Positions 547-54,546 of a DNA stretch of 64,000 nt are shown piece after piece (positions within the stretch are counted from its first letter, which is position 1; each line of letters begins with the position of its first letter). Source of the stretch: a virus (taxonomy: Duplodnaviria; Caudoviricetes); IMG/VR virus record IMGVR_UViG_3300034061_006011; one strand, written 5' to 3'. The notes beneath the pieces were generated by a model. That model was not told the origin of the DNA. It made no database searches and saw nothing but the letters and a program-made list of their open reading frames with translations. A program made the translations under genes and the position numbers.

Positions 547-1179
547 TTAATTTTTATAATCTTTTAATTCAAACTTTTCAACAATGAAAGGAATCAATTG
601 TTGTACTATCTTGTCTTCTAAAGACAAAAGATTACTATCATTCTTCATGTAATAATCAAACATAGGATAGTTACTATCAGCAATAATTCCATTTGCGTCT
701 TTATTACCAAAATAATCTGATGCTTCTCCCATAATCTTTTCACTATCGTTTTGATCAGTGTTACGATGATTGGGACGATCAATAAGAACGACAATACCAT
801 CTTTTTCTTTAATTGCTTTAGCTTCGTTAAGATAACGACCATCTGTGATAATTACATTTTGCATTTTATTCAAAACTTTGTCGATCCAAACAGAATTTTT
901 AACTTTTCTGAATCCATCACCAATCATTTGTAAAGCCTGTCTGACATTCATTGAAAAACCGGGAGGAGGTTCGGGATTTCTTTTCCATTCTTCAATAAAA
1001 TCAAAATCAACGTCAAAGTAATCACAATATATTTTTTTGACATTATAGGCAAAAGCAATTTTTGTAACAAGTGGTTTTTCATGATCAATATATTGCCACA
1101 GCCGTGGAGCAAGCATTCCTGCAACTGTATCTTTACCAGATGCTGCCTGACCAAATAAGCCAACAATGATATTTTTCAT
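547..1179 (-). CDS. Deoxynucleoside monophosphate kinase (T4 gp1-like)
   Basis: P-loop GQAASGKDT, then FAYNVK, RQALQMIG and ITDGRYLNE motifs. Confidence 0.85.
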   Translation of the reverse strand: MKNIIVGLFGQAASGKDTVAGMLAPRLWQYIDHEKPLVTKIAFAYNVKKIYCDYFDVDFDFIEEWKRNPEPPPGFSMNVRQALQMIGDGFRKVKNSVWIDKVLNKMQNVIITDGRYLNEAKAIKEKDGIVVLIDRPNHRNTDQNDSEKIMGEASDYFGNKDANGIIADSNYPMFDYYMKNDSNLLSLEDKIVQQLIPFIVEKFELKDYKN

Positions 1180-1194
1180 AACTATGTTATAGTC
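1180..1194. promoter_or_regulatory. 15-bp bidirectional promoter-like spacer between divergent ATGs
   Basis: AACTATGTTATAGTC. TATGTT (+) and TATAAC (-) each lie 6 nt from an ATG. Near-identical copy at 53860-53874. Confidence 0.55.
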
Positions 1195-1452
1195 ATGAAC
1201 AAGAAAAAATGCAACAATTGTTTTTGCTTTGATCGAGAAAAAAAAGTTTGCAAAGTTAACATCATTTATAATGGTAAAAACTTAAACATGCCTGTAGCTG
1301 CAAGCGATGATTGTCACTATATCGAACTAGGCGTATCTGTTGAACAAGTTCGCTTCTGGGAAGAAGAAGCGAAGGGTAAAAAGGTTGTTAAAATGGAATA
1401 CCCAGAAAACTTCTTTGGAAAGAATCTTAACTCAGCTTTAGATCCTGTATAG
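1195..1452 (+). CDS. Small Cys-rich hypothetical protein
   Basis: 85-aa ORF with CNNCFC...C...CH. Confidence 0.6.
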   Translation: MNKKKCNNCFCFDREKKVCKVNIIYNGKNLNMPVAASDDCHYIELGVSVEQVRFWEEEAKGKKVVKMEYPENFFGKNLNSALDPV

Positions 1453-2081: not shown

Positions 2082-3869
2082 CTAAACTTCTTTTTTACTA
2101 AATCTATTTTTTAGATCCGAAAAAAATGAATCACCACAATTCCAACCACAAATTTTTGAAACAAGACTTAAGCAAGCACAGATTCTGCCAAAATCTTTTA
2201 CTATGACGGGAATCAATGGTGATAACATGCCTGTGCTTCTTTTATTCATCATGCAGTAATAAAGATATCCTATTTTTACTGATCCAGTTTCAATATAGTT
2301 TCTTCCTAAAAGCTCTTGCAATCTTTGCATATACAAAGAGCAAAAATTCTTTTCATCTTCTGACATGAAGTTTTTATTGTTACTTGGTGTAAACGCAAGA
2401 TAATATGTAAGAATTGAATCTTTTCTAACGCTTCCGGCAAAATATCTAGAAAAACTTTTTATCCAACAATTCAAATCATAAGGGTCAATAAAAAATAACA
2501 CACTTGGTAAACCTAATTTTTTCAAATTGTAATTACCATCATCATCAATGACAACAAATTTCATATGCTCTAACCTATCAAGTGTGTTCTTCAAGTAATT
2601 TGAATTTACTTTGTTGAGAAATCCTCCAAATGTCTTAGAAAGCATGTTCCATATTTTATCAAATGTAAGTTTCTTTTCTTGATGTATCATTGCAAGAATA
2701 TGAATAGCAAGTTTATTATATTCTAAATCATCATTAAGATTAAATAACTTTGACAAAGCATCATCTACTTTTTTGTACTCATTGGCTAAAGTTATTTTGT
2801 TATCTGGAAAGAAAACATAAGCATCACCTTGATCATCGATGCCTTTCCTCCCTGCTCTTCCAATCATCTGGCGTATCTCAGACTTATCAACTAACTCTTT
2901 GCCTCTTACTACCCCTGCTATAATTACTCTTCTAGCTGGCAAATTAACGCCAGCAGCGAGTGTACTTGTTGCAACGAGTATTCGTAAGGCTCCTTCCTTA
3001 AACTCCTTCTCAAGCGTTTTACGCTTACTAGGAGACAAGTCTGCTGAATGGAACTTTGTATCAAATCCTTTAGACTTTATATAAGACACTAATTTTTTGC
3101 CAATATTCTTTGAATGAACGAATACTAATATCTTATCTGCCTGATGTTTGTCGCATAAAATTGAAATGCAATCAAACATATCATGAGGGACACCACTAGA
3201 ACTTAAAGATGTGTCAAACTTCTTATAATGTATTTTCAAAGGAACAGCTTGATAGTTTGAATTCAGAATATAGGTTTGTTTCTTGTTTAAATCATGCAAC
3301 CATTCACCGATTTGGTTAGCATTTGGCAATGTACCACTGAGAAATATTATTTTTGAATGATTTTTTCTAGCAAATTCTGTTAGAGCAAATTCTAAAGTAG
3401 GACCACGATCATCTGAACCGATCATATGTGCTTCATCTACTATAATTGTATCTATATCATCGAATACATTTGGATTTGTTCTTACATTGTGACAAAAGCT
3501 TTCAATTGTTGCTACGACTAAGTCTCCATCTTTATCTTTCTTTTCATCACCTGCCATTATTGTTATTTTTTTCTTAGAAAATGGATGATCTTCAGATGAC
3601 CATGCTGAAAACTTTTCAGAAGCAAGTGATTTCAAAGGACACATGTAAATGCATTTTTTGTCATTTTTAATCAAAGATTCAAAAATAAAAAATTCAGCAA
3701 CTATTGTTTTACCACTGTTTGTTGAAGATGCAATTATAAAATTGGCATCTTTGTCAACATGATCCAAAACAGAACTTTGAACAACATTGAAGTTTTCAAA
3801 AGGATATTTATAAAGCTTAAAAGAATCTGATGATTTCTCGACAACTTCGCCGATTTCTATTGTGTTCAT
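2082..3869 (-). CDS. Ski2/Hel308-like SF2 helicase
   Basis: SSTNSGKT, DEAH, LSGT, ATSTLAAGVNLPA, QMIGRAGR. C-terminal winged-helix with LG..S..FIDP. Confidence 0.85.
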   Translation of the reverse strand: MNTIEIGEVVEKSSDSFKLYKYPFENFNVVQSSVLDHVDKDANFIIASSTNSGKTIVAEFFIFESLIKNDKKCIYMCPLKSLASEKFSAWSSEDHPFSKKKITIMAGDEKKDKDGDLVVATIESFCHNVRTNPNVFDDIDTIIVDEAHMIGSDDRGPTLEFALTEFARKNHSKIIFLSGTLPNANQIGEWLHDLNKKQTYILNSNYQAVPLKIHYKKFDTSLSSSGVPHDMFDCISILCDKHQADKILVFVHSKNIGKKLVSYIKSKGFDTKFHSADLSPSKRKTLEKEFKEGALRILVATSTLAAGVNLPARRVIIAGVVRGKELVDKSEIRQMIGRAGRKGIDDQGDAYVFFPDNKITLANEYKKVDDALSKLFNLNDDLEYNKLAIHILAMIHQEKKLTFDKIWNMLSKTFGGFLNKVNSNYLKNTLDRLEHMKFVVIDDDGNYNLKKLGLPSVLFFIDPYDLNCWIKSFSRYFAGSVRKDSILTYYLAFTPSNNKNFMSEDEKNFCSLYMQRLQELLGRNYIETGSVKIGYLYYCMMNKRSTGMLSPLIPVIVKDFGRICACLSLVSKICGWNCGDSFFSDLKNRFSKKEV

Positions 3870-3875
3870 GATTTT

Positions 3876-3904
3876 ATTATATACTTGAAATCAACAGTTG
3901 TCAA
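3876..3904 (-). promoter_or_regulatory. Consensus sigma70 promoter, predicted leaderless
   Basis: TTGACA-17 nt-TATAAT on the minus strand; the -10 box ends 6 nt before the ATG at 3869. Confidence 0.8.
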
Positions 3905-23437: not shown

Positions 23438-23885
23438 TGTAAAACAAGTAACTATTTTTTGACCCCGGTCTAAGACTCTTTTGATTTTGACGATAATCTA
23501 ATACAAGTTTTGTATCAGGATTTTCATAGATAACAAAATCTTTCAATCTTGATAAAACAGTTGTTATAAATTCTTTACTACCAGTAATTCTTAATGTATC
23601 TTCTTGTACCGTGCTTCCTTTATGAAAACTATCGATAGGTTCAAGTTGTAAAGGAATGTTTGGAGCTAATGCTTTCCAAAATCTTACAATTTCAGATTTC
23701 TTAGCCTTCCAAGGTTTTAATTTTGGATGATATCCTTGAACTTCTGGTTGTGGAACAGAACCCATAGTTGGTGCAGGAACATTGCTCGCATTAGCAACAG
23801 GAGAAGAAGATGTAGTTGGCTGTGCAGCAATCTGAGGCTCAGATGCTTCTTCAAATTTATTGATATATTCCCAAAATGTTTTCAT
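23415..23885 (-). CDS. Hypothetical protein with capsid-targeting-like leader
   Basis: Preferred start MKTFWEYINKFEEA at 23885. Confidence 0.65.
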   Translation of the reverse strand: MKTFWEYINKFEEASEPQIAAQPTTSSSPVANASNVPAPTMGSVPQPEVQGYHPKLKPWKAKKSEIVRFWKALAPNIPLQLEPIDSFHKGSTVQEDTLRITGSKEFITTVLSRLKDFVIYENPDTKLVLDYRQNQKSLRPGSKNSYLFYINVRKRK

Positions 23886-23903
23886 TGCTAATATATACTT
23901 AGT
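23886..23903. promoter_or_regulatory. 18-bp symmetric bidirectional spacer
   Basis: CAT-6 nt-TATATA-6 nt-ATG; TATATA is self-complementary. Confidence 0.55.
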
Positions 23904-24272
23904 ATGATCACAATTCATGAATTCAAACATAAAATATTTTTAACAGAAGCTGATGCTCCTCCTGCTGGCGCAGCGCCTCCTGCCGGTGGCGCACCTCCTG
24001 CTGCTGGTGGCGCTCCTCCTCCCGGTGGCGATGCAGGCGGTCTTGGTGGTAGTCTTGGTGGAGATCTAGGAGGCTTAGGAGGAGGAGGAATGGGTGGTGG
24101 AGCACCTCCTCCCGGATCAGATTTAGGCGGTGCAATTGGTGGTGCGGCAGGTGGCGGAACAACTCCTATAACAGATATTAAGAAATTAAATGCTTGGGAT
24201 CTTTTGGAAAAGTTTTTCCGTGATAAGAAAGATCCTAAAGAAGACAAAGATCCTCTGGACAAGTATACCTGA
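23904..24272 (+). CDS. Gly/Pro/Ala low-complexity protein with leader
   Basis: MITIHEF...LTEA, then repeated GAPPPAGG and GG.LGG. Confidence 0.6.
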   Translation: MITIHEFKHKIFLTEADAPPAGAAPPAGGAPPAAGGAPPPGGDAGGLGGSLGGDLGGLGGGGMGGGAPPPGSDLGGAIGGAAGGGTTPITDIKKLNAWDLLEKFFRDKKDPKEDKDPLDKYT

Positions 24273-53042: not shown

Positions 53043-53501
53043 ATGATCAATTATAATGAGTTTATAAAAGCATTGAATGAAGGCTCACAGAATATGAGAT
53101 ATTCTGTTGAGGTTAATTTCGATACACCTAAAGAAGATTGTTTAGTTTCTTACGCAAAAATAGTTCTTGGTTATGTTAGTGCAGCAATGAAGAAGATGGA
53201 TTATCATGTTAAGCTTGTGTTTTCACATAAGCCATTAAGATTGATTGTTGCTTCTAGAAATTGGGATGATGGGGAATGGGTTGGGATGATTTCTTACAAT
53301 GAAGAAAAAGATCATTTCACTTTATCAAAAGGTTTTTATAACAAACTTAAGAAAACAGTTGCAGTTCAAGACACTAGTACAATAAGTGATCCCGTAAATG
53401 CAAAGATATTATCTTACAAATTACGGGATTTAATGAAAGATTTAGAGGGCAAAAAGGATCGATTTGCCCCCGAATTTAGAAAATTAAGAATCAATCTTTA
53501 A
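53043..53501 (+). CDS. Hypothetical protein with leader
   Basis: MINYNEFIKALNEG; TAAATA 5 nt upstream. Confidence 0.7.
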   Translation: MINYNEFIKALNEGSQNMRYSVEVNFDTPKEDCLVSYAKIVLGYVSAAMKKMDYHVKLVFSHKPLRLIVASRNWDDGEWVGMISYNEEKDHFTLSKGFYNKLKKTVAVQDTSTISDPVNAKILSYKLRDLMKDLEGKKDRFAPEFRKLRINL

Positions 53502-53859
53502 TAATTTTAATATTGGAGCAAGGACTTTCGACTAGAAGAACTTCATCTAGATGTTCTTGTTCGCCTTCCTTAAGGATCTTCTTCTTGCTGGTTTGACCTG
53601 CTGCAACGTGTTCAACCTTGCCTTCATTTGTTACGATAGGTGGTTGGTCAAGAATAAGCTTACTTTCCACGATTACCTCTTTCTGCTTATAGGGTCCAAT
53701 AAAACGAATCATACCAACTTTGACAAATTCGAAAAAATCTTTTTCTGCCAAGAATTGTCCTCTTGGCTTAATCATTTCCAGACCCTTATAAGCAGGTCTA
53801 GAAAGTTTTAAATCATAGTTGTGATGATTTTCAAAAAGAAACAGTTCTGGGATATTCAT
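53491..53859 (-). CDS. Hypothetical protein
   Basis: Preferred start 53859; several LxE sites. Confidence 0.55.
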   Translation of the reverse strand: MNIPELFLFENHHNYDLKLSRPAYKGLEMIKPRGQFLAEKDFFEFVKVGMIRFIGPYKQKEVIVESKLILDQPPIVTNEGKVEHVAAGQTSKKKILKEGEQEHLDEVLLVESPCSNIKIIKD

Positions 53860-53874
53860 AACTATATTATAGTA
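53860..53874. promoter_or_regulatory. 15-bp bidirectional promoter-like spacer
   Basis: AACTATATTATAGTA. TATATT (+) and TATAAT (-) each lie 6 nt from an ATG. Confidence 0.6.
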
Positions 53875-54210
53875 ATGAATAATAAAAAAATGCCAAACTG
53901 GTATGAAATATATCCCCAAGGAACACCTGAAGGGGAAGAAGAAAAGAAATTTTTCTTATCTTTGATTAGGAATAAAAAATATAAAAATTGGCGTAGCGTG
54001 TCTGCTATTTCAAAAGAATCAGGATTGACAGAAGAAAAAATTGAACAAATTATATTCAAATACCATAAAATTGGACTTATAATTCAAAGCCCCGCTAACT
54101 CAGAGTTCTGGGGTTACTATTACAATAATTTAGAAGATGTTAAAGAAGATCCAATTTCTGTAATCGAAGAAGAAAGAAAAAAAATTCTTAAAAAAGCTAA
54201 AAATCCTTAA
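53875..54210 (+). CDS. Winged-helix-like hypothetical protein
   Basis: WRSVSAISKESGLTEEKIEQII.KY...GLI. Confidence 0.65.
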   Translation: MNNKKMPNWYEIYPQGTPEGEEEKKFFLSLIRNKKYKNWRSVSAISKESGLTEEKIEQIIFKYHKIGLIIQSPANSEFWGYYYNNLEDVKEDPISVIEEERKKILKKAKNP

Positions 54211-54346
54211 GCCATTGGTATAAAACAACTTTCATAATAATAAAAACGGATATAGGCATCGGAACAAACCCAATGCGCTATACCAGTTCTTCTTATGTTT
54301 TCAAAAATATTTTATCTCTTGATTCGAGATATTCCATAAACTTCAT
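54207..54346 (-). pseudogene. Frameshifted tandem paralog of 54346-54546
   Basis: MKFMEYLESRDK in frame 0; ENIRRTGIAHWVCSDAYIRFYYYESCFIPMA in the -1 frame aligns to ENAKRGGIATWAYPDAYARGQYPSNYFMPIA. Confidence 0.65.
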
Positions 54347-54546
54347 TACTTGGAATTAACTTTTCTTCCAATTCCCAACTTAAATGCCGCATCAGCTGCT
54401 ATTGGCATAAAGTAGTTAGAAGGATACTGACCTCTTGCATAAGCATCAGGATAAGCCCAAGTAGCGATACCGCCTCGCTTGGCGTTCTCGTTAACAGTAG
54501 GAACCTTCAAGTTATTTTCAGTTGCCCAATCGGTAAATGTTTTCAT
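54346..54546 (-). CDS. Small protein with leader
   Basis: MKTFTDWATEN; GAGG RBS; TAAATA upstream. Confidence 0.75.
   Translation of the reverse strand: MKTFTDWATENNLKVPTVNENAKRGGIATWAYPDAYARGQYPSNYFMPIAADAAFKLGIGRKVNSK

Follow-up and report, generated by a model that had tools for sequence, protein, structure and literature searches.

Two pairs of divergent genes in the window (the whole stretch of 64,000 nt that was analysed) are each separated by a spacer of 15 bp, and the four genes, both spacers and the hexamers within them are listed below.

547-1179, minus strand: dNMP kinase of 210 aa (PHROG 139, E 8e-31; alignment)
1180-1194, no strand: copy 1 spacer, ACTAT-GTT-ATAGT, read as two overlapped promoter cores (sequence, motif score, conservation)
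1183-1188, plus strand: -10-like hexamer TATGTT, 6 nt upstream of the orf85 ATG (sequence, motif score)
1186-1191, minus strand: -10-like hexamer TATAAC, 6 nt upstream of the dNMP kinase ATG (TATAAT in 14-bp relatives)
1195-1452, plus strand: orf85, Cys-rich protein outside the known families (lies divergent to the kinase in 13/13 distant phages checked)
53491-53859, minus strand: orf122, function unknown (distant homologues are N-terminally longer)
53860-53874, no strand: copy 2 spacer, ACTAT-ATT-ATAGT (sequence, motif score, conservation)
53863-53868, plus strand: hexamer TATATT, 6 nt upstream of the orf111 ATG (in relatives TATATA, a perfect late-type box)
53866-53871, minus strand: hexamer TATAAT, 6 nt upstream of the orf122 ATG (TATTAT in relatives)
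53875-54210, plus strand: orf111, a conserved winged-helix-fold protein of this phage group (fold match weak, E 0.02)

As proposed in the initial annotation, a CAT-spacer-ATG arrangement separates the dNMP kinase gene from its divergent neighbour at 1177-1197 (CAT 1177-1179, ATG at 1195), and a near-identical spacer recurs about 52 kb away at 53860-53874, flanked by CAT at 53857-53859 and by ATG at 53875. The two copies, with 52.7 kb between them, are identical at 13/15 positions and mismatch at spacer positions 7 and 15. The -10-like hexamers said to lie exactly 6 nt before each ATG (TATGTT, TATAAC, TATATT and TATAAT) were all recovered, and neither spacer contains an SD, in line with the reported lack of a ribosome-binding site. 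T-7 is missing from the kinase box in the window and from the orf111 box in relatives. A further TAnnnT-like register, 4 nt from the ATG, is present on each strand, and the sequence therefore does not decide which register is used. Searching the window for the 21-mer with up to 3 mismatches returned 3 matches, all at the two sites (0.01 expected), while ACTAT-N3-ATAGT occurs only twice, both times between start codons, against 0.05 expected. Across all of IMG/VR the exact 21-nt pattern has 31 matches, 12 of which fall at the two orthologous loci, and none of the remaining 19 lies between two ORFs of at least 60 aa.

All four ORFs show gene-like evolution, with changes mainly at third positions. 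The true starts might have differed from those annotated, as had been cautioned, yet the alignment and the stops in possible extensions support the annotated ATGs: M1 of the dNMP kinase is invariant in the alignment and precedes the P-loop by a short distance, and a possible 17-codon upstream extension of orf111 is interrupted by a stop in two relatives. Alternative upstream starts considered for orf111, orf85 and the kinase were closed or absent. Family searches assigned neither orf85 nor orf122, and a sequence search with orf111 found no solved relative. orf111 belongs to an unnamed family of 163 clusters (50% identity) that serves as a marker for a broad set of jumbo T4-like phages, and its best fold matches include Z-alpha domains, with weak E-values. 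Compared with distant homologues, orf122 is without a basic N-terminal segment of about 25 residues, a loss already present in the sister lineage with a 49-bp gap.

The window comes from an uncultured T4-like jumbo (giant) lake phage with a GC content of 33%, and encodes a tail sheath, UvsX, gp32, a gp41-like helicase, an SbcCD-like nuclease, ribonucleotide reductase and gp15, as well as a gp55-like late sigma factor (40083-40574). Contigs of up to 238 kb carry proteins identical to those of the window, and distant relatives with complete genomes measure 527-572 kb. In an attempt at host assignment, the neighbouring sugar-kinase gene had no relative in genome contigs. Ribosomal protein S21 is found in some relatives (L210 1435-1683; L213 1441-1716), including the close relative G003, with viral clusters as its nearest, and WhiB was not found in four near-complete relatives; we take this combination to speak against an actinobacterial host. 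The genes at 1-2041 and 53043-54546 alternate in direction, their 3' ends abutting or overlapping without clear terminators. Antisense read-through across entire genes of these two regions, in a non-contiguous operon pattern, is likely.

Among near relatives, copy 2 measures 15 bp in 7/7 distinct variants and copy 1 does so in four other lineages. The spacers are 13-15/15 identical (13-14/15 at 69-75% protein identity), compared with 35-56% at 4-fold sites (p 4e-3 to 7e-5 per pair, the pairs not being independent), and the top-strand ACTAT is invariant across all 15-bp forms. Conservation in related phages, on which the initial annotation had staked its reading, thus holds far above synonymous sites for the 15-bp forms but does not extend to the length of copy 1, which is 14 bp in relatives at 85-88% identity, 76 bp in L009 (72% identity) and 39 bp with SDs in L010. 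In the 14-bp variant the kinase box is improved to TATAAT, and the orf85 box becomes ACTCTATT, 5 nt from the ATG and without the A at -11; orf85 stays intact in these relatives despite the damaged box. Both L009 and L010 provide orf85 with a canonical TTGAC-16/17-TAnnnT promoter within their longer gaps, indicating that the kinase/orf85 gap is the home of the orf85 promoter. At L009 2924-3000 (G003 37091-37170), TTGACT-16-TATCAT stands 6 nt before a 12-codon leaderless mini-ORF, the stop of which overlaps the orf85 start; translational coupling possibly replaces the direct leaderless start of orf85 here.

Both divergent gene pairs are old, being seen in about 60 distant jumbo T4-like phage loci with SD-bearing gaps of mostly 39-280 bp. 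About 45 loci of distant phages (36-58% identity, local GC 27-55%, gaps of 51-225 bp) have orf122 and orf111 in divergent orientation, and the kinase/orf85 pair is divergent in 13/13 distant phages, where the gaps are mostly 39-280 bp with SD, once 21 bp, and hold inserted genes in some. In L197, L198 and L202 the insertion between kinase and orf85 is a small gene of about 55-60 codons, possibly (by eye) for a ribbon-helix-helix protein. A de novo, unseeded Gibbs search of 44 long orf122/orf111 gaps, from which the window clade was left out, revealed one shared core, TAWWATAGT (T42 A41 n n A34 T39 A44 G37 T36, n=44), carrying 10.0 bits of information compared with 6.3-6.6 for shuffles. This core lies mostly 20-35 nt from the right-hand ATG, and SDs are present on the right side of 42/44 and on the left side of 38/44 of these gaps. 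Either strand of it reads TAnnnT, giving two hexamers of the -10 type in opposition whose positions 2 and 6 pair, the arrangement met most often in bacterial bidirectional promoters (bioRxiv 10.1101/2020.01.31.928960). When the long-gap matrix was applied to the window, both strands of both spacers ranked in the top 0.002-0.13% of 9-mers, and the partner hexamer was placed exactly 6 nt from an ATG on each strand of each spacer.

In a tree of the orf122 and orf111 proteins, which has a midpoint root only, the 15-bp rows form one clade (support 99/97) that is sister to L065 with its 49-bp gap, and long-gap rows surround this clade on every side. This nesting, along with the mostly long kinase/orf85 gaps, argues that two unrelated loci shrank to one design; judged by the tree and the gap lengths, the 15-bp state is derived, one subclade having lost both leaders at two unrelated loci. 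The ancestral gap would have contained a single, shared -10 core together with two SD-bearing leaders, and the deletion of these leaders at both loci would have left a spacer composed of two ancestral cores, one per strand, overlapped with a 2-bp offset, which is the shortest layout that keeps a box 6 nt from both ATGs. Since two cores overlapped in this way fix 10/15 positions (ACTAT and ATAGT), most of the 13/15 match and the palindrome would follow without either an operator or a duplication. The agreement of copy 2 with the core of the 49-bp outgroup leads us to infer that this copy arose in place. Duplication of a whole cassette was rejected, as the flanking proteins are unrelated and each copy retains its own centre. 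In the copy-2 orthologue gap of L133 (2031-2083), a 17-bp inverted repeat of about -20 to -24 kcal/mol contains both SDs in its arms and promoter-like boxes in its middle, and is likely a two-way translational lock; a similar repeat of 11 bp occurs in the kinase gap of L201.

We consider it likely that each spacer is a -35-less two-way promoter giving two leaderless mRNAs. RNA polymerase would open the spacer in either orientation at a -10 box of the ACTAT-W-W-T type, without a conserved -35; transcription would begin 6 nt downstream of the box, at the A of the ATG or right beside it, and both genes would be translated from leaderless mRNAs. Competition between the two directions is to be expected, given that a single polymerase spans both boxes. 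At the sequence level, the conservation, motif, geometry and derived state of the spacers are established. Both spacers display the -10 box about 6 nt before a start codon without SD that is expected of leaderless genes, together with the -10 boxes on both strands, paired at key positions, that are expected of bidirectional promoters. The predicted start offset is 16 bp if both starts fall on the A of the ATG, and the ancestral single core corresponds to the 18-type pairing. The offsets preferred by bacterial bidirectional promoters are 18, 23, 10, 12, 7 and 29 (bioRxiv 10.1101/2020.01.31.928960), a list that does not include 16, and small offset shifts are allowed in such promoters (PMC12825309).

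The minimal two-way leaderless promoter put forward in the initial annotation is thus supported by comparison (conservation above 4-fold sites, the core in long SD-bearing gaps, the orf85 promoters of relatives and other leaderless starts), except for its -35 and activator part. Such sites, supposed to lie inside the opposite CDS, were not found: at a spacing of 16-18 bp, matches to a canonical -35 reach 1-3/6 in the window, no better than background, 17% of which reaches 4/6. The nearest likeness is only a TTG at 17 bp spacing, for the kinase. Furthermore, -35 words are not enriched in the 44 long gaps, no conserved -35 was seen in the opposite genes, and a promoter scan yielded no match in the register of the spacer boxes. 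C at -13 is not enriched in the TTGAC-type promoters of the phage (1/16), and the G of AGT may stand for C-13 on one strand or, on the opposite strand, for the discriminator G-5.

The phage offers further starts for comparison. About half of the phage's genes begin at SD-led starts, and leaderless-looking designs of at least three kinds occur besides. Individual sites are as follows.

3876-3904, minus strand: perfect TTGACA-17-TATAAT promoter, with 6 nt between it and the helicase ATG at 3869 (sequence)
38016-38026, no strand: two-way core ACTATATTAGT in an 82-bp divergent gap with leaders kept (motif score)
40069-40076, plus strand: single ACTATATT box; 6 nt separate it from the ATG of the gp55-like late sigma gene at 40083-40574 (sequence)
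45775-45782, plus strand: single ACTATAAT box; 6 nt separate it from the ATG at 45789 (sequence)

The predicted helicase promoter shows a sigma70-type leaderless design in this phage. Across five genomes, about 39 ATGs follow the late box TAWATA at a distance of 5-6 nt, and in half of these cases the encoded N-terminus is a head-loading tag. An ACTATnnT box, with ACTAT at -14 to -10 and 6 nt before the ATG, precedes 11 starts, including that of the late-sigma gene, compared with 0.7 expected, a count that takes in orthologues and is hence not of independent cases. The boxes before the late-sigma gene and others are single and without the ATAGT arm. The orf277 box (45775-45788 and orthologues) varies as ACT-GTAAT, -AATTT, -CAATT and -TTATT, so that only ACT and the distance are kept, and the sigma70 reading does not explain this variation. 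At 23883-23906, an 18-bp divergent gap (23886-23903) is centred on a self-complementary TATATA 6 nt from both ATGs; the gap is also 18 bp in three relatives, a similar 18-bp gap is found in LR756511, and the site is probably a two-way late promoter. The gp55-like sigma gene itself looks leaderless (40062-40085), with a conserved CACTATATT box in a divergent gap of 18 bp; in relatives this gap is 22 bp, and one TA step is common to two opposed -10 boxes (23-bp configuration). The 15-bp spacers are the tightest case of a general short two-way layout in this phage.

Which sigma factor would read the spacers can be weighed within the two-way promoter model, where we lean towards the host housekeeping sigma. 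It is favoured because the same box precedes the late-sigma gene, which is needed before late transcription, and TAnnnT on both strands of the ancestral core as well as the canonical orf85 promoters in relatives speak for it too. A division in which the host sigma reads leftward and the gp55-like late sigma rightward is possible, though clearly less likely. It is suggested by TATATA before orf111 in relatives, by ACTA-W-ATA being the best late box of the clade, and by the fact that ACTCTAT, in which the sigma70 A-11 is lost, is repeatedly tolerated; at a distance of 5-6 nt from the start, the match to TAWATA is 6/6 for orf111 in relatives and 5/6 in the window, and 3-4/6 for the other three boxes. 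Another phage sigma as the reader seems improbable. An alphaproteobacterial CTATAT consensus was looked for in the text of PMC3616915, where it did not occur, and was therefore left unused. We also entertain, as a doubtful proposal, that this group of jumbo phages has a promoter class of its own in the -35-less box extended by AC, and that the spacer is a two-holoenzyme switch: the host sigma would read it in one direction early, and the opposite direction would be read late by the gp55-like sigma or by another sigma of the phage, both messages being leaderless.

The symmetry of the spacers may be read in other ways. ACTAT-N3-ATAGT could be an operator for a dimeric regulator, for instance orf111 controlling its own gene and the kinase pair, given that orf111 has a winged-helix fold and adjoins copy 2, that the palindrome is restricted to the two sites within the window, and that the 14-bp variant retains the arm spacing with one mismatch. 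We regard this as unlikely because the arm spacing varies: instead of being fixed, it is 3 bp in the subclade and 1-7 bp in distant orthologues, some with one arm, although orf111 is conserved. Moreover, the learned motif is asymmetric with TAnnnT geometry, single arms stand at the same distance from other ATGs, and no further intergenic copies of the palindrome with up to 1 mismatch form a regulon. A quite unlikely reading, which may also add to the promoter, is that the symmetry is kept for an RNA hairpin hiding the AUG on read-through transcripts, each gene being translated only from its own short message. The AUG indeed lies inside hairpins of -5.6 to -9.9 kcal/mol (z -1.7 to -4.0, against shuffles that preserved single-base composition only), but CAT/ATG and ACTAT/ATAGT pair by construction, the loop is 3 nt and the stem AU-rich, and the bases of the outer pair do not pair in copy 2 and conform in copy 1 to a pyrimidine-at-minus-1 pattern. 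No terminator-like site was seen in the stretch from the strong helicase promoter to the kinase, the distant orthologue L133 has its 17-bp stem over both SDs, and T4 gene e provides a precedent (PMC3014915), all in favour of the hairpin; against it, an internal AUG without SD would be poorly translated anyway.

It is very unlikely, in our estimation, that each spacer has one real promoter direction (kinase and orf122), the partner gene being expressed from upstream or read-through transcripts and the symmetry being partly a by-product. The 14-bp variant, which betters the kinase box and harms that of orf85, would fit such an arrangement, as would the conserved AGT side of the ancestral motif, which favours leftward reading; yet the long gaps keep TAnnnT on both strands with the SDs for both genes inside them, and the top-strand ACTAT does not change in any 15-bp form. 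If the two-way leaderless promoter is correct, 15 bp hold all transcription and translation signals for two genes, which is near the physical minimum. The relatives then document directly, as a natural series at two independent loci, how SD-led genes turn leaderless through deletion of the leader, and the 15-mer could serve as a very small co-expression part.

Several known systems share parts of this design. A literature search found no report of a two-way leaderless phage promoter this small, in a limited library that leaves such absence unproven. Bacterial bidirectional promoters (Warman et al., bioRxiv 10.1101/2020.01.31.928960; PMC12825309) likewise have opposed -10 hexamers with positions 2/6 paired, and short DNA, often between divergent genes, suffices for both directions. 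The phage spacers differ in overlapping two cores, with predicted starts 16 bp apart and with AC at -14/-13 of the boxes, and in that both messages are predicted to be leaderless, a word absent from PMC12825309. The leaderless genes of Deinococcus deserti (PMC4007540) share a TAnnnT-type box just before the start codon, the lack of a conserved -35 and the presence of SD-led genes alongside; here, by contrast, phage rather than host genes are concerned, 15 bp are used two ways, and the starts are predicted from sequence. T4 late promoters and gp55 (PMC7892883, PMC3014915) are also -10-only, and the phage has a gp55-like sigma, TAWATA 5-6 nt before many ATGs and a TATATA box before orf111 in relatives, whereas 3/4 of the spacer boxes deviate from TAWATA, and a box of their type also stands before the phage sigma gene itself. 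The T4 gp55 box at -13 to -6, without a -35, fits the TAWATA late-box class of this phage. As in the hairpin lock of T4 gene e, soc and I-TevI (PMC3014915), the promoter would lie within an inverted repeat by which longer transcripts would have their start codon masked, but the stem of the phage spacer is short and largely forced by geometry, and there is no SD to hide. Set beside these systems, the spacers present no new principle; they are known principles, namely bidirectional -10 promoters and leaderless mRNA, in an extreme, traceably derived and unusually compact form.
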